UHGV virus genome: UHGV-0156413
Length of the DNA: 16,142 bases
Source of the DNA: a virus
Direction: 5' to 3' (one strand)
The position numbers were made by a program, and so were the translations under genes. Below, one piece after another: positions 3,361 to 12,017 of this stretch. The notes under the pieces are model-generated. The model was not told the origin of the DNA. It saw only the letters and a program-made list of their open reading frames with translations, and did no database searches. Every line of letters starts with the position of its first letter. Position 1 is the stretch's first letter.

Positions 3361-3632
3361 GTATTCGTATTGAAATTGGCGAACGTTATGTCGTTACCAG
3401 TGACAGCTTTCAGTTTATTCTCCACGAGAAAAAGAGAGCGGAAAGCGGTAAAAACGCCGGTCAGGAATGGCTGTCGGTGGTTGGTTATTACCCGAAATTA
3501 AGCCAGCTCGTTTCCGGCCTGATGCATCACGATATTCTGACCGGAAGCGCAAAGTCTTTTGCTGATTTAAACGCGCAGGTTGAGCAACTCAGCAAGCGTT
3601 GTTCAGAGGTTTTTGGCTCATATGGCAGTTAA
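3357..3632 (+). CDS. Hypothetical early protein (P2 orf83 position)
   Basis: 91-aa ORF, start overlaps upstream stop; its 3' end overlaps the start of A. Confidence 0.6.
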   Translation: MSIRIEIGERYVVTSDSFQFILHEKKRAESGKNAGQEWLSVVGYYPKLSQLVSGLMHHDILTGSAKSFADLNAQVEQLSKRCSEVFGSYGS

Positions 3633-5898
3633 AGCCTCCGGGCGTTGTGTCCCTCCGTCAGCATTTGCCGCAGGCACCGGTAAGACGTTTACCGGTGCTT
3701 ATGCATGGAACGCGCCACGCGAGGCCGTCGGGCGCGAAAGACCCCTTACACGTGACGAGATGCGTCAGGTGCAAGGTGTTTTATCCACGATTAACCGCCT
3801 GCCTTACTTTTTGCGCTCGCTGTTTACTTCACGCTATGACTACATCCGGCGCAATAAAAGCCCGGTGCACGGGTTTTATTTCCTCACATCCACTTTTCAG
3901 CGTCGTTTATGGCCGCGCATTGAGCGTGTGAATCAGCGCCATGAAATGAACACCGACGCGTCGTTACTGTTTCTGGCAGAGCGTGACCACTATGCGCGCC
4001 TGCCTGGAATGAATGACAAGGAGCTGAAAAAGTTTGCTGCCCGTATCTCATCGCAGCTTTTCATGATGTATGAGGAACTCAGCGATGCCTGGGTGGATGC
4101 GCATGGCGAAAAAGAATCGCTGTTTACGGATGAGGCGCAGGCTCACCTGTATGGTCATGTTGCTGGCGCTGCACGTGCTTTCAATATTTCCCCTCTCTAC
4201 TGGAAAAAATACCGTAAAGGGCAGATGACCACGAGGCAGGCATATTCTGCCATTGCCCGTCTGTTTAACGATGAGTGGTGGACTCATCAGCTTAAAGGCC
4301 AGCGTATGCGCTGGCATGAGGCGTTACTGATTGCTGTCGGGGAGGTCAATAAAGACCGTTCTCCTTATGCCAGTAAACATGCCATTCGTGATGTGCGCGC
4401 GCGCCGCCAGGCAAATCTGGAATTTCTTAAATCGTGTGACCTTGAAAACAGGGAAACCGGCGAACGCATCGACCTTATCAGTAAGGTTATGGGCAGTATT
4501 TCTAATCCAGAAATTCGCCGGATGGAGCTGATGAACACCATTGCCGGTATTGAGCGTTACGCCGCCGCAGAGGGTGATGTGGGGATGTTTATCACGCTGA
4601 CCGCGCCGTCAAAGTATCACCCGACACGTCAGGTCGGAAAAGGCGAAAGTAAAGCCGTCCAGCTAAATCACGGCTGGAACGATGAGGCATTTAATCCAAA
4701 GGATGCGCAGCGTTATCTCTGCCGCATCTGGAGCCTGATGCGCACGGCATTCAAGGATAATGATTTACAGGTCTACGGTTTGCGTGTCGTCGAGCCACAC
4801 CACGACGGAACGCCGCACTGGCATATGATGCTTTTTTGTAATCCACGCCAGCGTAACCAGATTATTGAAATCATGCGTCGCTACGCGCTCAAAGAGGATG
4901 GCGACGAAAGAGGAGCTGCGCGAAACCGTTTTCAGGCAAAACATCTTAACCGGGGCGGTGCTGCGGGATATATCGCGAAATACATTTCAAAAAACATCGA
5001 CGGCTATGCACTGGATGGTCAGCTCGATAACGACACCGGCAGGCCGCTGAAAGACACTGCAGCGGCTGTTACCGCATGGGCGTCAACGTGGCGCATCCCG
5101 CAATTTAAAACGGTTGGCCTGCCGACAATGGGGGCTTACCGTGAACTACGCAAATTGCCTCGCGGCGTCAGCATTGCTGATGAGTTTGACGAACGCGTTG
5201 AGGCTGCACGTGCCGCCGCAGACAGTGGTGATTTTGCGTTGTATATCAGCGCACAGGGTGGGGCAAATGTTCCGCGTGATTGCCAGACTGTCAGAGTCGC
5301 CCGTAGCCCGTCGGATGACGTTAACGAGTACGAGGAAGAAGTCGAGAGAGTGGTCGGCATTTACGCGCCGCATCTCGGCGCGCGTCATATTCATATCACC
5401 AGAACGACGGACTGGCGCATTGTGCCGAAAGTTCCGGTCGTTGAGCCTTTGACTTTAAAAAGCGGCATCGCCGCGCCTCGGAGTCCTGTCAATAACTGTG
5501 GAAAGCTCACCGGTGGTGATACTTCGTTACCGGCTCCCACACCTTCTGAGCACGCCGCAGCAGTGCTTAATCTGGTTGATGACGGTGTTATCGAATGGAA
5601 TGACACGGAGGTCGTGAGGGCGCTCAGGGGGGCATTAAAACACGACCTGAGAACACCAAATCGTCAGCAAAGAAACGGAAGCCCGTTAAAACCACATGAA
5701 ATTGCACCATCGGCCAGACTGACCCGGTCGGAAAGAATGCAAATTACCCGTATCCGCGTTGACCTTGCTCAGAACGGTATCAGGCCGCAGCGATGGGAGC
5801 TTGAGGCGCTGGCGCGTGGCGCGACCGTAAATTATTACGGGAAATCTTTCAATTATCAGGTCGCTGATGAGTGGCCTGGATTTTTGTTACCCATTTGA
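3622..5898 (+). CDS. A: Rolling-circle replication initiator (P2 gpA-like HUH endonuclease)
   Basis: Start taken at ATG 3622 (MAVKASG...) rather than the upstream ORF-track start. Contains HUH-like motif PHWHMMLF and tyrosine motif GYIAKYISKNIDGY typical of Rep/gpA nickases. Confidence 0.9.
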   Translation: MAVKASGRCVPPSAFAAGTGKTFTGAYAWNAPREAVGRERPLTRDEMRQVQGVLSTINRLPYFLRSLFTSRYDYIRRNKSPVHGFYFLTSTFQRRLWPRIERVNQRHEMNTDASLLFLAERDHYARLPGMNDKELKKFAARISSQLFMMYEELSDAWVDAHGEKESLFTDEAQAHLYGHVAGAARAFNISPLYWKKYRKGQMTTRQAYSAIARLFNDEWWTHQLKGQRMRWHEALLIAVGEVNKDRSPYASKHAIRDVRARRQANLEFLKSCDLENRETGERIDLISKVMGSISNPEIRRMELMNTIAGIERYAAAEGDVGMFITLTAPSKYHPTRQVGKGESKAVQLNHGWNDEAFNPKDAQRYLCRIWSLMRTAFKDNDLQVYGLRVVEPHHDGTPHWHMMLFCNPRQRNQIIEIMRRYALKEDGDERGAARNRFQAKHLNRGGAAGYIAKYISKNIDGYALDGQLDNDTGRPLKDTAAAVTAWASTWRIPQFKTVGLPTMGAYRELRKLPRGVSIADEFDERVEAARAAADSGDFALYISAQGGANVPRDCQTVRVARSPSDDVNEYEEEVERVVGIYAPHLGARHIHITRTTDWRIVPKVPVVEPLTLKSGIAAPRSPVNNCGKLTGGDTSLPAPTPSEHAAAVLNLVDDGVIEWNDTEVVRALRGALKHDLRTPNRQQRNGSPLKPHEIAPSARLTRSERMQITRIRVDLAQNGIRPQRWELEALARGATVNYYGKSFNYQVADEWPGFLLPI

Positions 5899-6158
5899 GT
5901 GAAAATGCAGCGTGATTTTATATGCCTTTGAATGGATTATGCGAAGCGCCTCTAAGGCAGATGAGGAGCAATAGCATGCTGAAGTAGAAGGCTAAATTGT
6001 ATTGAATCGCTAGCATGTAATTTAAGGCAGCTATTTGATTCGAGTCATAAAAGAGCATCTATTTCGGCTAATAAAACCATTGCGAGTGACCTTTTGTCGA
6101 AGCATAATTCATCTCGAGCGAAGTCTTGCTAGTCTTTCATCGGAATGATGACAGGCGC

Positions 6159-6188
6159 AAAAAAACCACCCTGGCAGGTGGTTTTTTT
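6159..6188. terminator. Bidirectional rho-independent terminator
   Basis: A7-CCACC (6159-6170), loop CTGGCA, GGTGG-T7 (6177-6188): GC stem flanked by an A-run and a T-run, so a U-tract follows the hairpin in either orientation. Lies downstream of A and just 3' of the minus-strand small ORF. Confidence 0.6.
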
Positions 6189-6200
6189 GTTTGAAGCATA

Positions 6201-6314
6201 CTAAAGAATAATACTTACATGGATATTACTGACGTTTACTGACAAACCACTTGGACTACCATATGGATAGCCAAAGAGGGCCAGAACGAGAATGCAGTAA
6301 TAGCACTTCTTCAT
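6201..6314 (-). CDS. Putative small hydrophobic peptide (37 aa; not in the ORF track)
   Basis: Minus-strand ATG at 6314-6312 preceded by CAGGAGGAGAT; translation MKKCYYCILVLALFGYPYGSPSGLSVNVSNIHVSIIL then stop; terminator immediately 3'. No homology assessed. Confidence 0.3.
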   Translation of the reverse strand: MKKCYYCILVLALFGYPYGSPSGLSVNVSNIHVSIIL

Positions 6315-6884
6315 ATCTCCTCCTGTAAGCAGAGGGCAATTTCCGCCGATATATGCGCTTCTAAGGCGGAGTTAATATTTAGCGAAGTCTTGCCCTGAAA
6401 TAATGCTCTGTTTAAACGCAAAGTGATCTGGCATATCACCGAACAGAGAGCCTGAACAACACAACATATAGTATGTCGTTGTTTCTGGTTGCATTTTATG
6501 TTGTGTAATACTGGTTTTGCATCAAGGATGTTTGAGCTTTTTTTGATATAGCTCAAAGTAAAAAGCAGGGACTACGGATGATAAGGTATTGAAAGCAATG
6601 TAAATTTTTTAAAGTTATTGGTGGCTAAAAAATGCACGATTTCAATGTGGCGGACTTAAATAAGCAATTAAAAAAGTCATAAATATCACTAAAATCATGG
6701 TGTTACGTTTTTTGTGGGAGCTGCGGTGACGCTTAAGTTGATTTGTCATTAAATAAGCCGTGCATGCAACAAGTGAATGTTTTTGCATGCGTCGGGGATG
6801 CCCGTTCCCGCTGCTTGCGGTCAGAGCTGGTGCGGATCCATAGTATCTATGCAACTGCATTAAAACCGCCACATGAAGCGGGCG

Positions 6885-6903
6885 GGCGAGGCGGGGAAAG
6901 CAC
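6885..6903. other. Putative cos site (19-nt cohesive-end sequence of P2-type phages)
   Basis: GGCGAGGCGGGGAAAGCAC at 6885-6903 matches the P2 cohesive-end sequence as I recall it; sits between A and Q as expected for a circularly permuted prophage. Memory-based, not searched. Confidence 0.55.
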
Positions 6904-6939
6904 CGCGCGTAAGATAAACAGAAGAGCGAAGGATTATGG

Positions 6940-6968
6940 TTGAGTATTTGTGTTTTTGTACATATGAT
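6940..6968 (+). promoter_or_regulatory. Candidate sigma70 promoter for the cargo operon
   Basis: TTGAGT (6940-6945), 17-bp spacer, TATGAT (6963-6968); followed by inverted repeat GTGTTT...AAACAC (about 6975-6997) and a GGAG Shine-Dalgarno before ATG 7010. Confidence 0.3.
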
Positions 6969-7009
6969 AAAAAGGTGTTTACGCTTAAAAACACATCAAA
7001 GGAGATGAT

Positions 7010-8311
7010 ATGGAAAATATAAAGATTGATAAGTTTCTCACTATTCAAAAAGTTGATATTCCTCTTAAGAAAGTGAATATATTTATTGGGCCTCAGGCAC
7101 AGGGGAAAAGTGTCATTGCAAAGCTAATAAAATATTTTAAAGATTATCCTATGGATATACTACGAGCTTCAACAGAGGGTAAAACTAAAAGAGATATATT
7201 GAAGGAGCAAAAGAATAAGTTTAGTAAAATTTTCCCTCAGCAGTATTGGGCTGATGATGAGTTTTTTATTGAGTATAGTAATAAGCACTATTGGGTGCGG
7301 ATTACTAATCGAAAAAATAGCAAAGGGTCATTGAAAATAGCCCTTTCTGAGAATTTAACGAAGACGATTGCTAAACTTCGTTTGATTGTACGAAAGGATT
7401 TAGATGAAAATATTGAGAATTCACTTGCAGAAAGCGTTACGAGAAGGCGTAAACGCGGAATTGAACATGAATTGCGAGTATGTCTTTCTCTAGGATTGTT
7501 TTCAGAACCAGAAACAAAGCTTGAAAGTGTTTTTTATATCCCCGCAGGGCGCTCTTTTTTTGCTAATTTGCAAAAAAATGTGTTTTCATTTTTATCCAGT
7601 AGTATAGAAATTGACTACTTTTTGACAGAGTTTGGTTCTCTGTATGAACAAACAAAAAAATTATTTAACCAAGATTACATGATTAGGATGCTTAGGGGGG
7701 CTGTGCCTCAACATGTTAATAAACTTGTGGAGGAGTTGATTTGCGGAAAATATATAACAGAAAAGGGTGAGGATTTTATTCGTCATGCTGCTAAGAAGAC
7801 GAATCTTAACAACTCGAGCTCAGGGCAGCAAGAAGCGTTACCAATGGCTTTAATGTTATCCTCATGGCCGTATTTACAGTCTATGACTAGTAAGAGTTTT
7901 ATTATTGAGGAGCCGGAGGCTCATCTGTTTCCTTCTGCCCAAGCAAAAGTTGTATCTTTAATAGCCTCAGCGTATAACCAAGCAGAAAGCTATTGTAGCT
8001 ATACAATAACAACACATAGTCCATATATTCTAAGTGCCTTCAATAATTTGATTCAAGCAGGTAATGCATTGAAGTGTATTAAGGGCAAGAATAATACCGA
8101 TATCGAACGCTTATATAAGCTTGTTCCAGAGTCTCAAATTATTGATTTTGATGATGTGACAGCTTATATGGTTAATGCTGGGAAAGTGACGGAAATACTG
8201 GATTCCGAACTAAATATATTAGATGCGAATGAAATAGATAGGATTTCCTCTATTTTTTCAGAGACTTTTGATGCATTGATTGATATCGAATATTCGGCTA
8301 CTGTGAATTAG
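7010..8311 (+). CDS. ABC-type ATPase of the AAA_21/OLD-like family (candidate defence ATPase)
   Basis: 433 aa. Walker A GPQAQGKS (aa 27-34), signature-like SSGQQ (aa 269-273), Walker B/D-loop FIIEEPEAHLFP (aa 297-308), H-loop TTHSP (aa 334-338). AT-rich codon usage unlike the phage backbone. Confidence 0.85.
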   Translation: MENIKIDKFLTIQKVDIPLKKVNIFIGPQAQGKSVIAKLIKYFKDYPMDILRASTEGKTKRDILKEQKNKFSKIFPQQYWADDEFFIEYSNKHYWVRITNRKNSKGSLKIALSENLTKTIAKLRLIVRKDLDENIENSLAESVTRRRKRGIEHELRVCLSLGLFSEPETKLESVFYIPAGRSFFANLQKNVFSFLSSSIEIDYFLTEFGSLYEQTKKLFNQDYMIRMLRGAVPQHVNKLVEELICGKYITEKGEDFIRHAAKKTNLNNSSSGQQEALPMALMLSSWPYLQSMTSKSFIIEEPEAHLFPSAQAKVVSLIASAYNQAESYCSYTITTHSPYILSAFNNLIQAGNALKCIKGKNNTDIERLYKLVPESQIIDFDDVTAYMVNAGKVTEILDSELNILDANEIDRISSIFSETFDALIDIEYSATVN

Positions 8312-8319
8312 GTGATTGA

Positions 8320-8757
8320 ATGTGTAAAAATTGCAAAGGAAAAACAAAAAATAAAATCATTGTGCTATCTGATAAAGGAACGTCAACGCAATTGTCAGTC
8401 ACAAATGATAATGAGTTGGAAGTTGAGCATAAGTTAATAGATGGTTGCGCTATTGTTGTTGGAGAGCGGTGTGATCATTATTTGAAGATTTATAACAATC
8501 AGGATGTTTCACATCTTTTTGTTGAACTTAAAGGAAGTGATGTTGAAAAAGCTGTTAAACAGATAGTGACAACTTTAAAGTCAGGTGTGATTAATGTAGG
8601 TGCTAAAGAAAAAAAACATGGTGCTATTGTTAGCACTAGGAATCCGCTAAACTCACCAGAAACCAATAGGTTAAAGAAGAAAATTCTTTTGAGTGACGGA
8701 GTGAATTTGCATTTCTATAAAATGAAGGCGCAGCAAAAAATAACTTCTTTTACATGA
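8320..8757 (+). CDS. Small partner protein, possible PD-(D/E)xK-like nuclease or effector (hypothetical)
   Basis: 145 aa; starts 8 bp after the ATPase stop with AGGTGA upstream. N-terminal CxxC (C2, C5); candidate catalytic core D52 ... E69-L-K71 (ERCDH ... FVELKG). Assignment is tentative. Confidence 0.7.
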   Translation: MCKNCKGKTKNKIIVLSDKGTSTQLSVTNDNELEVEHKLIDGCAIVVGERCDHYLKIYNNQDVSHLFVELKGSDVEKAVKQIVTTLKSGVINVGAKEKKHGAIVSTRNPLNSPETNRLKKKILLSDGVNLHFYKMKAQQKITSFT

Positions 8758-8860: not shown

Positions 8861-9880
8861 TCATAATGAATAAGTTCGAAAGCGAAATACATCTTCGCCA
8901 ACCCAACAGTTAATTTCTTTACATCGCTCTTGGAGGAACGTTAGCTCGTTGCGTACAAAGACTTGTGCTGCTTTTGTTACATCTCCAAATCCTCCTGTGT
9001 TGTTGGGCATCATTCCTATCATTTGGGGAGGCACGCGATGAGCACTCATTAGATCTTCAGCACTTGCTTTTTTGATATTAAAAAAATCGTCCTTCGTTGC
9101 CACTTCACTGAGCGGGATAATTTTAATGCCGTCGGCTTTCCCCTGCGGGGCATAGAGAAACAGATTTTTAAAGTTATTGCGGCCTTTCGACTTAACCATG
9201 TTTTCGCGAAGCATTTCGATATCGTTGCGATCCTGCACGGCATCAGTGACGTACATGATGTATCCGGCATGAGCGCCGTTTTCGTAATACTTGCGGCGGA
9301 ACAGCGTGGCCGACTCATTCAGCCAGGCAGAGTTAAGGGCGCTGAGATATTCGGGCAGGCCGTACAGCTCCTGATTAATATCCGGCTCCAGCAGGTGAAA
9401 CACGGAACCGGGCGCGAAGGCTGTCGGCTCGTTGAAGGACGGCACCCACCAGTAAACATCCTCTTCCACACCACGGCGGGTATATTTTGCCGGTGAGGTT
9501 TCCAGCCTGATAACTTTACCGGTGGTGCTGTAACGCTTTTCCAGAAACGCATTACCGAACACCAGAAAATCCAGCACAAAGCGGCTGAAATCCTGCTGGG
9601 AAAGCCACGGATGCGGGATAAATGTCGAGGCCAGAATATTGCGTTTGACGTAAATCGGCGAGCTGTGATGCACGGCAGCACGCAGGCTTTTTGCCAGACC
9701 GGTAAAGCTGACCGGCGGCTCATACCATCTGCCGTTACTGATGCACTCGACGTAATCCAGAATGTCACGGCGGTCGAGTACCGGCACCGGCTCACCAAAG
9801 GTGAATGCTTCCATTTTCGGGGCGCTGGCGGTGATTGTTTTTGCCGCAGGTCGCGGTGTTTTCCCTTTTTTCTTGCTCAT
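8861..9880 (-). CDS. Q: Portal protein (P2 gpQ-like)
   Basis: 339-aa ORF immediately downstream of and overlapping the large-terminase stop (ATGA); conserved P2 Q-P arrangement; size close to P2 Q as recalled. Confidence 0.9.
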   Translation of the reverse strand: MSKKKGKTPRPAAKTITASAPKMEAFTFGEPVPVLDRRDILDYVECISNGRWYEPPVSFTGLAKSLRAAVHHSSPIYVKRNILASTFIPHPWLSQQDFSRFVLDFLVFGNAFLEKRYSTTGKVIRLETSPAKYTRRGVEEDVYWWVPSFNEPTAFAPGSVFHLLEPDINQELYGLPEYLSALNSAWLNESATLFRRKYYENGAHAGYIMYVTDAVQDRNDIEMLRENMVKSKGRNNFKNLFLYAPQGKADGIKIIPLSEVATKDDFFNIKKASAEDLMSAHRVPPQMIGMMPNNTGGFGDVTKAAQVFVRNELTFLQERCKEINCWVGEDVFRFRTYSL

Positions 9881-11292
9881 CAGTAAAACTCCAGAATGGT
9901 GGATGTCAGCGGAGTGCTGATACCGGCGGTGAGTGGCTCATTTAACAGGGCGTGCATGGTTGCCCAGGCGAGGTCGGCGTGGCTGGCTTCCTCGCTGCGG
10001 CTGGCCTCATAGGTGGCGCTGCGTCCGCTGCTGGTCATGGTCTTGCGGATAGCCATGAACGAGCTGGTGATGTCGGTGGCGCTGACGTCATATTCCAGAC
10101 AGCCACGGCGGATGACGTCTTTGGCCTTGAGCACCATTGCGGTTTTCATTTCCGGCGTGTAGCGGATATCGCGCGCGGCGGGATAGAACGAGCGCACGAG
10201 CTGGAACACGCCGACACCGAGGCCGGTGGCATCAATACCGATGTATTCGACGTTGTATTTTTCGGTGAGTTTGCGGATGGACTCCGCCTGGGTGGCAAAG
10301 TCCATGCCTTTCCACTGGTGACGCTCAAGTATTCTGAATTTGCCACCGGCCACCACCGGCGGTGCCAGCACCACGCATCCGGCGCTGTCGCCACGGTGTG
10401 ACGGGTCGTAACCAATCCATACCGGGCGGGAGCCGAACGGATTTGCGGCAAACGGCGCGTAGTCTTCCCATTCTTCCAGCGTGTCGACCATGCAGCGTTG
10501 CAGCTCCTCGAACGGGAACACCGATGCCTTGTCGTCAACAAATTCACACATGAACAGGTTTTTAAAATCGTCGGCGCTGTTTTCGCGTTTGAGCTGCTCA
10601 ATGTCGAACAATGTGCAGCCGCCTTTCAGGGCGTCCTCAATGGTGACAATCTGCCGCCACTGGCCGTCCGCACAGAGAAGACCACCGGCAAGGGCGTTAT
10701 GACTGACGTCGATTTCCACACGTTCGGCGGCGCTGGCGCGTCCCCGGTTGAACAGTTCACCCGACCAGAACGGGTAGGCGTCGTGCGCCAGTGTGGACGG
10801 GGTGGAGAAATAGGTCGAGCGCAGGTGACTCTGTGAGGCCATACCTGATGCCACCTTACGCAGTACCTGAAAATTCGGGATCCAGAAAATCTCGTCGACG
10901 TACAGGTCGCCGTTATGGCTCTGTGCGGTGTTGGAGTTGGTGCCGAGAAAAATCAGTTTTGCGCCGTTATTGCCCAGGACAATCGGGTCACCGGTCAGGT
11001 CAACGTCAACCAGCCGGGCAAAGGCGATGATGTATTCGCGGAACACATACGCCTGCGTTTTACTGGCCGACAGAAAAATCTGGTTATGACCGGTTTTCAG
11101 GGCGCGCAGCAGCGCCTCGCGGGAAAAATAAAACGTCGCGCCAATCTGGCGGGATTTCAGGATATCGCGGATGCGGTGCTCAAGCCCGGCGCGATACCAG
11201 TGCAACTGATATTCGAAAGACTGCTCAAAGAAAATCTGCTCCAGCTTTTCGATGGCCTCGTCACTGAAAAAATTCTTTTTCGGTTTGCCGCA
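9880..11292 (-). pseudogene. P: Large terminase subunit (P2 gpP-like), 5'-truncated
   Basis: Reading frame open from 11292 down to 9880 (about 470 codons) with no in-frame ATG at its 5' end; the frame runs straight into the opposite-strand O remnant. Contains deviant Walker-A-like KSRQIGAT. P2 P is about 590 aa as recalled. Confidence 0.7.
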
Positions 11293-12017
11293 TTAACCTG
11301 GAACATCTGCGCGGCATCCTGCCTGACGGTATTTTTAAGCGTTATGGCGATGTGGTCGAACTGAAGGCCGAAAAGATTGACGATGATTCGGCGCTGAAAG
11401 GCAAATGGGCGCTGTTTGCGAAAATCACCCCGACCGATGACCTTATCGCGATGAACAAGGCCGCGCAGAAGGTCTATACCTCAATGGAAATTCAGCCGAA
11501 CTTTGCCAATACCGGCAAATGTTATCTGGTGGGTCTGGCCGTCACCGATGACCCGGCAAGCCTCGGCACGGAATACCTGGAATTCTGCCGCACGGCAAAA
11601 CACAACCCCCTGAACCGCTTCAAATTAAGCCCTGAAAACCTGATTTCAGTGGCAACGCCTGTTGAGCTGGAATTTGAAGACCTGCCTGAAACCGTGTTCA
11701 CCGCCCTGACCGAAAAGGTGAAATCCATTTTTGGCCGCAAACAGGCCAGCGATGACGCCCGTCTGAATGACGTGCATGAAGCGGTGACCGCTGTCGCTGA
11801 ACATGTGCAGGAAAAACTGAGCGCCACTGAGCAGCGCCTCGCTGAGATGGAAACTGCCTTTTCCGCTCTTAAGCAGGAGGTGACTGACAGGGCGGATGAA
11901 ACCAGCCAGGCATTCACCCGCCTGAAAAACAGTCTCGACAGCACCGAAAGTCTGACCCAGCAGCGCCGCAGCAAGGCCACCGGTGGTAGCGGTGACGCCC
12001 TGATGACGAACTGCTGA
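11268..12017 (+). pseudogene. O: Capsid scaffold protein (P2 gpO-like), 5'-truncated
   Basis: Frame open from 11268 (just after an in-frame TGA at 11265-11267) with no ATG before GTG 11352; N-terminal residues of the P2 O protein (about 284 aa as recalled) are absent. Confidence 0.7.

Follow-up and report, generated by a model that had tools for sequence, protein, structure and literature searches.

The virus genome UHGV-0156413, a stretch of 16,142 nucleotides (nt) referred to here as the window, carries on its minus strand (6201 to 6314) a 37-codon open reading frame (ORF) that comparison of its copies identifies as a conserved, unannotated small-protein gene, always paired with a predicted small antisense RNA (sRNA). 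Both belong to a cassette that, judged from its sequence, is a new family of a known kind, in which a small-protein gene with a dedicated, convergent, predicted sRNA and an nrdDG-derived promoter is found on P2-type prophages and Klebsiella plasmids. We consider it somewhat probable that the cassette is an autonomous unit of ~575 bp in which a real gene for a hydrophobic protein of 37 amino acids (aa) has the layout of a type I toxin-antitoxin (TA) system, the sRNA restraining its translation. The predicted elements, with their positions in the window, are as follows.

6201 to 6314, minus strand: ORF of 37 codons plus stop (ATG, 6314 to 6312; TAG, 6203 to 6201), product MKKCYYCILVLALFGYPYGSPSGLSVNVSNIHVSIIL
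6317 to 6324, minus strand: Shine-Dalgarno (SD) sequence AGGAGGAG, 2 to 4 nt upstream of the ATG, read as cAGGAGGAGat-ATG
6315 to 6486, minus strand: predicted structured 5' untranslated region (5' UTR, or leader) of ~172 nt, its start placed from the -10 element
6381 to 6393, minus strand: direct-repeat copy 1 (GCAAGACTTCGCT), predicted sRNA binding site in the 5' UTR, 64 nt upstream of the ATG
6159 to 6188, both strands: bidirectional intrinsic terminator A7-CCACC-TGCCAG-GGTGG-T7, a 13-nt perfect inverted repeat common to the mRNA and the sRNA
6116 to 6188, plus strand: predicted sRNA of ~73 nt, with 5' seed GAGCGAAGUCUUGC (6116 to 6129), hairpin (6132 to 6156), and terminator
6080 to 6108, plus strand: predicted sRNA promoter, flagged by a consensus scan, with -35 TTGCGA (6080 to 6085), 17-bp spacer, and -10 CATAAT (6103 to 6108)

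Conservation of the ORF and properties of the peptide

The first-pass annotation of the window had called this ORF and noted a strong SD sequence before its ATG, and the window sequence and the ORF list bear out its position, its sequence, and the SD. The length of the ORF is unremarkable, with 23 ORFs of at least 20 aa overlapping positions 5850 to 7050, so that the case for a real gene comes from the other copies and not from the window. The ORF is intact (37 or 38 aa) in 72/72 full-length copies, which represent ~16 to 17 peptide variants and each of which retains the ATG, the SD, and the stop codon; GGAG(G) of the SD is kept in nearly all homologues. The sole insertion or deletion is one extra in-frame codon in Kluyvera (38 aa). 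Among seven diverged copies, the ratio of nonsynonymous to synonymous substitution rates (dN/dS) is 0.08 to 0.41 in the ORF frame versus ~1 to 3 in the other two frames, and the substitutions at codon positions 1, 2, and 3 number 149, 132, and 312, respectively. Conservation of the ORF as such, beyond that of the nucleotide sequence, had been made a test of the gene in the first-pass annotation, and this pattern identifies the ORF as a real gene under purifying selection as a protein.

The 37-aa peptide has a grand average of hydropathy of 0.91, a net charge of +2, and a hydrophobic core at residues 4 to 15, and its C terminus (...NIHVSIIL) carries no charge. The family consensus reads M-[KN]-[KR]-x3-C-I-L-V-L-[AT]-L-[FIL]-G-Y-P-x-[GD]-x-[PQ]-S-[GN]-[LW]-S, followed by a C-terminal half in which hydrophobic and polar residues strictly alternate. 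An exhaustive HMMER search of representatives gave only six real relatives and added peptides of 37 to 38 aa at 56 to 59% identity. The peptide had no match in Pfam (E ≤ 10), NCBIfam, PHROGs, or PADLOC (0 families), and a full-text literature search for the peptide or seed strings found no paper. A single-sequence AlphaFold2 model (two helices; predicted local distance difference test score, 70) was set aside, as its confidence is low and it conflicts with the beta-like residue pattern. The peptide is presumably targeted to the membrane, and it is the architecture of the cassette only that would make it a toxin.

Shared terminator and predicted convergent sRNA

The bidirectional terminator that the first-pass annotation placed past the stop codon is present and begins 12 nt after the TAG. 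It was missed by a simple terminator scan, probably because the A and T runs extend the stem and consume the T tail. The terminator is identical in all copies except for one loop base in Citrobacter and Enterobacter, and this near-invariance exceeds what termination alone would be expected to require.

A cis-antisense RNA had been looked for on the plus strand across 6200 to 6320, where the consensus scan gave no plus-strand promoter-like site. The predicted antisense partner lies instead downstream of the ORF and convergent with it; it overlaps the mRNA over the 30-nt terminator only and would pair with the 5' UTR by means of a direct repeat. Across 10 copies, the -10 element of the sRNA promoter is invariant and the -35 element is TTGCG(A/G), whereas the spacer has freely diverged and the 7-nt discriminator is variable. 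From position 6116 on, the predicted sRNA 5' end is the invariant GAGCGAAGUCUUG in these copies, and the 13-nt 5' seed is likewise invariant. Seed invariance among a further 65 loci found by pattern scans was imposed by the search pattern, and the evidence is that from the 10 independent copies and the set found with the ORF-anchored pattern.

In the sRNA hairpin, the sequence varies while pairing is kept (UCAUC/GAUGA, CUCCU/AGGAG, CUUCU/AGAAG), with four pairs showing double changes. In 8 of the 10 copies, the plus-strand version of the hairpin is the more stable one (for example, -9.4 as opposed to -5.5 kcal/mol and -9.2 as opposed to -3.4 kcal/mol), and this G·U asymmetry speaks for the plus strand as the functional RNA. 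For the predicted 73-nt RNA, the folding energy is -31.9 kcal/mol (z = -3.8). Rfam searches at the gathering threshold and at E ≤ 10, with the window and four homologous loci, returned only weak, terminator-driven matches and no family for either RNA. Upstream of the sRNA promoter there is one further motif.

6035 to 6048, plus strand: TTGAT-N4-GTCAT motif with FNR/CRP-like half-sites (TTGAT-TCGA-GTCAT in the window), present in 9/10 copies at variable spacing from the sRNA -35

Through this motif, both RNAs might answer to the same regulator.

Predicted pairing between the sRNA and the leader

A direct repeat of 13 to 16 nt lies in the leader and again past the terminator, and the 5' end of the sRNA is therefore complementary to the leader. 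The seed is complementary to leader positions 6393 to 6381 (GCAAGACUUCGCU), and this 13-mer is directly repeated at 6129 to 6117; the window has no match to the seed target other than these two repeat copies. The target is also absent from the nrdD region. In 10/10 independent copies, the predicted seed-leader duplex has an energy of -25.6 to -33.2 kcal/mol and always lies 63 to 65 nt upstream of the ATG. Natural variants (A to G in the leader and C to U in the sRNA) turn Watson-Crick pairs into G·U pairs, so that pairing is kept. The loop of a leader hairpin, UGCCAG, is the same as that of the mRNA terminator and is complementary to the sRNA terminator loop CUGGCA, and there could be a loop-loop kissing contact between the leader hairpin and the sRNA terminator.

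A second direct repeat of 16 nt and 88% identity (5946 to 5961 and 6355 to 6370, in the gpA-proximal flank and a leader hairpin, respectively) was excluded from the system; it is present in window-type copies and missing from E. coli W-type copies and is thus probably fortuitous or lineage specific.

mRNA promoter related to that of nrdDG

The region upstream of the leader resembles the promoter of nrdDG.

6459 to 6612, minus strand: predicted nrdDG-like mRNA promoter region, containing the following four elements
6543 to 6556, minus strand: FNR-like site TTGAG-N4-ATCAA
6512 to 6525, minus strand: FNR-like site TTGAT-N4-AACCA
6493 to 6498, minus strand: -10 element TAAAAT
6459 to 6474, minus strand: NrdR-box-2-like element ATACTATATGTTGTGT, 14/16 to the consensus

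Positions 6516 to 6612 (97 nt) are 81 to 83.5% identical to the treC-nrdD intergenic region, which holds the nrdDG promoter, in 5,426/5,426 E. coli genomes; for the NrdR box, the comparison was made with an experimentally used NrdR-binding oligonucleotide (PMC12176259). The two promoters have in common ~97 to 130 bp of homologous sequence, both FNR sites, the -10 element, and NrdR box 2. They differ in that the cassette has ~11 bp inserted between the -10 element and box 2, and in that, past box 2, the sequences are unrelated and the cassette would drive the 37-codon ORF and not nrdD. The cassette promoter is probably derived from the nrdDG promoter or shares a common ancestor with it.

Activation of nrdDG by FNR and an overlap of the FNR site with NrdR box 1 have been published (PMC2892513). 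Among the copies of the cassette, those of the plasmid type alone retain box 1, which is degenerate in the P2-type copies. By virtue of its nrdDG-type promoter, the mRNA is probably subject to anaerobic activation by FNR and possibly also to repression by NrdR, a control that we infer from the promoter elements. A 10-nt perfect inverted repeat (ACACAACATA at 6459 to 6468 and TATGTTGTGT at 6497 to 6506) brackets the -10 element and the first 25 nt of the mRNA. Its arms amount to two NrdR-box-like elements, 32 bp apart start to start, which suggests that a two-box operator may have arisen anew in the P2-type promoter.

Predicted structure of the leader

Two hairpins were delineated in the leader.

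6406 to 6448, minus strand: predicted leader hairpin SL2
6342 to 6370, minus strand: predicted leader hairpin SL3

Compensatory changes are seen in three leader helices (CUCUGUU/AACAGAG, GGUGAU/AUCACU, and UCCGCC/GGCGGA). The pairs altered on both sides number nine, whereas column shuffles gave 3.0 ± 1.0 and reached nine in 0/500 cases; of the cells in the helices, 93% are paired, as compared with 41 to 48% in slid controls. No upstream reading frame is conserved in the leader. Two upstream frames, of 81 aa (6311 to 6556) and 40 aa (6372 to 6494), were considered as coupled or leader genes and ruled out by stops and frameshifts in diverged plasmid-type copies; their presence reflects nucleotide conservation of the leader and not coding. 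Automatic gene callers sometimes fuse such leader-derived frames to the ORF, as in P0004, P0007, P0015, and P0021; the resulting "proteins" of 79 to 149 aa are annotation artefacts of public protein collections, caused by mutation of a leader stop codon or truncation of a contig.

Extent and distribution of the cassette

Alignment of ten independently found copies showed conservation over ~575 bp (~6030 to 6610), with unrelated flanks. The cassette region is present in 150/5,426 complete E. coli genomes, in none of which does RefSeq annotate anything there, and in three phage records, one of which annotates a 114-nt coding sequence (WFG40939.1, "hypothetical protein"); a few GenBank entries also label the ORF "hypothetical protein." It was further found, at ~74% DNA identity, on ~390 plasmids, nearly all from Klebsiella, with Klebsiella and Enterobacter plasmids among the carriers. 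A protein-pattern scan of species-representative genomes added two loci, on Citrobacter and Kluyvera contigs, and the 65 pattern-scan loci came from IMG/VR and metagenomes, where every full-length copy has an intact ORF. The ORF and the sRNA module are coinherited in the 10/10 copies found via ORF or DNA similarity, without use of the sRNA, and in 29/29 IMG/VR contigs found with the ORF-anchored pattern.

The plasmid neighbors of the cassette are unrelated to one another and include Mla-type and ATP-binding cassette transporters, the insertion sequences IS1 and IS3, and traX/tra genes. On metagenome contig Ga0268256_1001162 (L064:3354 and L064:6276), there are two diverged whole cassettes 2.9 kb apart. 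Occurring in unrelated contexts and duplicated on one contig, the cassette thus behaves as an autonomous mobile unit. One of the two copies on this contig has the A-to-G change in the leader target and still pairs (G·U) with the sRNA seed. Carriers of the cassette include E. coli W, a strain of laboratory and industrial use (NC_017664.1; 2,327,585 to 2,328,163), and a sequence type 131 isolate (NZ_OX637964.1). It is absent from pKPN3, the plasmid examined from K. pneumoniae MGH 78578, the strain of a differential RNA sequencing (dRNA-seq) and RIL-seq study.

The cassette in the P2 gpA-gpQ interval

The window is a P2-like prophage that, in the cassette region, is 99% identical to E. coli E24377A. 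The following genes serve as landmarks.

50 to 1063: integrase
3580 to 5898: gpA replication endonuclease
8861 to 9880, minus strand: gpQ portal

The ORF is located in the gpA-gpQ interval, which in P2-type prophages is a hotspot carrying antiphage systems (PMC9122126). The survey that described this hotspot was based on annotated proteins (PMC9122126), and since RefSeq annotates nothing here, the cassette is invisible to such surveys. In 46/75 loci, all P2-like, the cassette lies exactly 207 bp past the gpA stop codon with the sRNA on the gpA strand, an arrangement in which early transcription of P2 would run on through the sRNA sequence as far as the shared terminator. In 8/23 loci, no other cargo accompanies the cassette, which lies ~0.9 to 1.0 kb from gpQ; otherwise the distance is 2.5 to 3.6 kb with extra cargo, as in the window. 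Here the extra cargo consists of a 433-aa AAA_15/AAA_21 ATPase (7010 to 8311, plus strand) and a 145-aa partner (8320 to 8757, plus strand), which match the PADLOC candidate PDC-M29A/B (E = 2e-31 and 2e-4, respectively), with weaker matches to AriA and PD-T4-4_A. This PDC-M29A/B-like pair is likely a defense cargo of the hotspot.

Some further observations concern the prophage itself. At 11285 to 11288, between gpP (9880 to 11205) and gpO (11352 to 12017), ~660 bp are missing relative to at least eight related P2-like prophages; the deletion takes the gpO start, the region of the divergent P/O promoters, and ~150 codons at the N-terminal end of terminase gpP. The prophage is thus probably defective, the small-ORF cassette being still intact. 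A ~60-bp segment at 6849 to 6909, with the hairpin CCGCTTCATGTGGCGG (6881 to 6866), matches ~2,100 E. coli genomes and also occurs close to the termini of numerous records of P2-like phages; it has the look of a conserved P2-backbone element at the border of the hotspot. Dozens of "complete" E. coli chromosome records, such as NZ_LR883965.1 (L006) and NZ_JALDNN010000001.1, start exactly at P2 gpA and have the cassette at 2409 to 2989 or 2413 to 2991, gpA having apparently been mistaken for the replication-initiator start gene by assembly-rotation tools.

Proposed mechanism and alternative explanations

If the cassette acts as a type I TA system, an mRNA (~6486 to 6159, minus strand) comprising the 172-nt leader, the ORF, and the intrinsic terminator would be made from the nrdDG-type promoter, and the ~73-nt sRNA would be transcribed convergently from its own sigma-70 promoter, stopping at the same bidirectional terminator. 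The sRNA would pair by its 5' end with the leader, ~64 nt before the ATG, and by its 3' end with the mRNA terminator. In this way the sRNA would restrain translation of the small protein, whether through occupancy of a leader element (standby or structural), through cleavage triggered in the duplex, or through both, and the membrane-targeted peptide would be released if the sRNA were lost or the mRNA strongly induced. Transcription of the two RNAs, translation of the ORF, and the direction of regulation are predictions from the nucleotide sequence.

The first-pass annotation had suggested a type I toxin-like gene for a small hydrophobic peptide. What stands of this is a genuine gene with an SD, a terminator, and a predicted antisense partner; a C-terminal half unlike that of a classical alpha-helical type I toxin does not fit it. 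The peptide is, as expected of a type I toxin, a small (<60 aa) hydrophobic protein from a dedicated mRNA, and the predicted sRNA corresponds to the adjacent sRNA gene complementary to the toxin mRNA. Several observations weigh against a toxin restrained by this sRNA. The hydrophobic segment is short (approximately residues 4 to 15), with a signal-peptide-like N terminus; the C-terminal half has a beta-strand-like alternation of hydrophobic and polar residues that is atypical for helical pore-forming toxins; and the peptide showed no sequence similarity to known type I toxins in Pfam, in NCBIfam, or by BLASTP against TimP. The mRNA promoter was not detected by the consensus scan and was recognized through its homology to nrdDG. 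Partition-function folding gives no consistent SD-sequestering partner in the leader, and in thermodynamic modeling, masking of the sRNA target shifts SD accessibility inconsistently; neither result accounts for repression via pairing 64 nt upstream. A helix between the SD and codons 7 to 9 is conserved, but without covariation.

The same evidence bears on what else the cassette could be. The product could be a non-toxic small membrane or envelope protein for anaerobiosis or nucleotide stress, its expression tuned by the sRNA, that is, a "moron" benefiting the host; we regard this as possible, on the unlikely side. The nrdDG-type promoter, with its FNR sites and NrdR-like box, points to condition-specific expression, the signal-peptide-like N terminus and alternating C terminus are found in place of a long transmembrane helix, and TimP is harmless to growth at endogenous levels (PMC7667032). 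However, the spread over plasmids and prophages, the two copies on one metagenome contig, and the position in the P2 defense hotspot form a distribution typical of selfish or defense elements, and a dedicated, strictly coinherited antisense RNA with a duplex of -25 to -33 kcal/mol is more than most small membrane proteins have. Selection might also have acted on antiphage defense or superinfection exclusion for the P2-type prophage, which we consider unlikely and which is compatible with a TA system; the route could be abortive infection when a phage shuts off host transcription and the sRNA decays. The site in the gpA-gpQ hotspot (PMC9122126) beside the PDC-M29A/B-like ATPase pair, sometimes as the only cargo, would fit a defense role, and the annotated-protein survey of the hotspot would have missed the cassette. 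Against it, the cassette has no similarity to any PADLOC model and is common on Klebsiella plasmids outside recognizable defense islands.

Two further explanations turn on whether the protein is the relevant product. It is very unlikely, in our estimate, that the sRNA is the main product, acting in trans (in P2 possibly as the gpA 3' UTR), with the ORF mRNA as a decoy, sponge, or secondary target. The sRNA does have classic trans-acting features (a 5' seed that is single stranded, a U-rich terminator, and a hairpin), and, 207 bp past the gpA stop codon and on the gpA strand, it would fall within the early transcript of P2-like phages, but selection clearly acts on the ORF at the protein level, plasmids without gpA also conserve the sRNA promoter, and seed targets are confined to the two repeat copies in the window, with none in the nrdD region. 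That the ORF is an untranslated chance frame inside a conserved non-coding RNA or DNA element is extremely improbable: although short ORFs are frequent in the window and the P2-type copies of the cassette are highly conserved in nucleotide sequence, frame, length, start, stop, and SD are all kept at 59 to 65% peptide identity, substitutions are in excess at third positions, and dN/dS in the other two frames is ~1 or more.

A type I TA system can also be put in a more extended form, which taken as a whole we hold to be decidedly unlikely. The cassette would then be a new enterobacterial, par-like type I TA family whose toxin promoter was captured from nrdDG and senses anaerobiosis (via FNR) and dATP/ATP balance (via NrdR), signals that lytic phages perturb; in the gpA-gpQ hotspot, the cassette would serve for abortive infection or exclusion, and on Klebsiella plasmids, it would serve for maintenance.

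Significance

If confirmed, the cassette would add a new type I TA-like family in the best-studied bacteria, extend the par-type layout (shared terminator and direct repeats) to Gram-negative bacteria, and provide a natural case of a mobile element borrowing the FNR/NrdR-controlled nrdDG promoter. The link that it would make between the sensing of oxygen and nucleotide pools and a prophage- or plasmid-borne small membrane protein is specific and testable. Should the protein prove harmless, it would still be a conserved, regulated small protein on clinically important plasmids.

Comparison with known systems

The closest parallel in layout is the par locus of Enterococcus faecalis plasmid pAD1, in which convergent genes share one bidirectional terminator and direct repeats give 5' complementarity (PMC8167048). 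As in par (Fst/RNAII), the cassette genes are convergent with a shared terminator, a direct repeat provides the 5' complementarity, and the predicted pairing spans the 5' repeat and the terminator; par also encodes a small hydrophobic peptide (~33 to 37 aa) and is plasmid borne. In contrast to par, the cassette peptide lacks a Pfam Fst/Ldr match and a charged tail at its C terminus, a single repeat stands in place of DRa and DRb, and this repeat lies 64 nt upstream of the ATG and not over the ribosome-binding site. The hosts of the cassette are Gram negative, and its promoter is of the nrdDG type.

Among enterobacterial systems, binding of an antitoxin to a standby site well upstream of the SD has precedents, for example, in tisB/IstR-1 (PMC8167048). 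In TimP/TimR, the sRNA likewise pairs within the 5' UTR and not at the SD, and TimP is not growth inhibitory at endogenous levels (PMC7667032). With timP/TimR (ryfA) of Salmonella and E. coli, the cassette shares an enterobacterial protein of similar size (38 to 41 aa in that system) with a signal-sequence-like N terminus, a structured 5' UTR of considerable length, a terminator soon after the stop codon, and a target site in the 5' UTR. However, TimR is divergent and upstream, whereas the cassette sRNA is convergent and downstream, and timPR is a core-genome locus, whereas the cassette resides on mobile elements. Homology to TimP/RyfA was rejected: no BLASTP alignment to K-12 TimP (41 aa) was obtained, MAFFT showed no similarity, the ryfA DNA is dissimilar, and there was no match to Rfam RF00126 (E ≤ 10). 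Membership in Hok/Sok was also rejected, with no Hok_Gef match in Pfam or NCBIfam and with the mok-like overlapping frames (6311 to 6556 and 6372 to 6494) broken in plasmid-type copies.

The E. coli type I pairs tisB/IstR-1, zorO/OrzO, and dinQ/AgrB, with sRNAs that act in trans on the 5' UTR, resemble the cassette in their short complementarity (~13 to 20 nt) far upstream of the SD and in a stress-regulated toxin promoter, which is controlled by LexA in those systems and has FNR/NrdR-like elements in the cassette. Unlike the predicted sRNA described here, their sRNAs are divergent and share no terminator with the toxin mRNA, and their toxins are single alpha-helical transmembrane peptides with no sequence relationship to the cassette peptide. 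By the sum of its predicted features, the cassette resembles both par and the enterobacterial pairs that target the 5' UTR and is a member of none of them.

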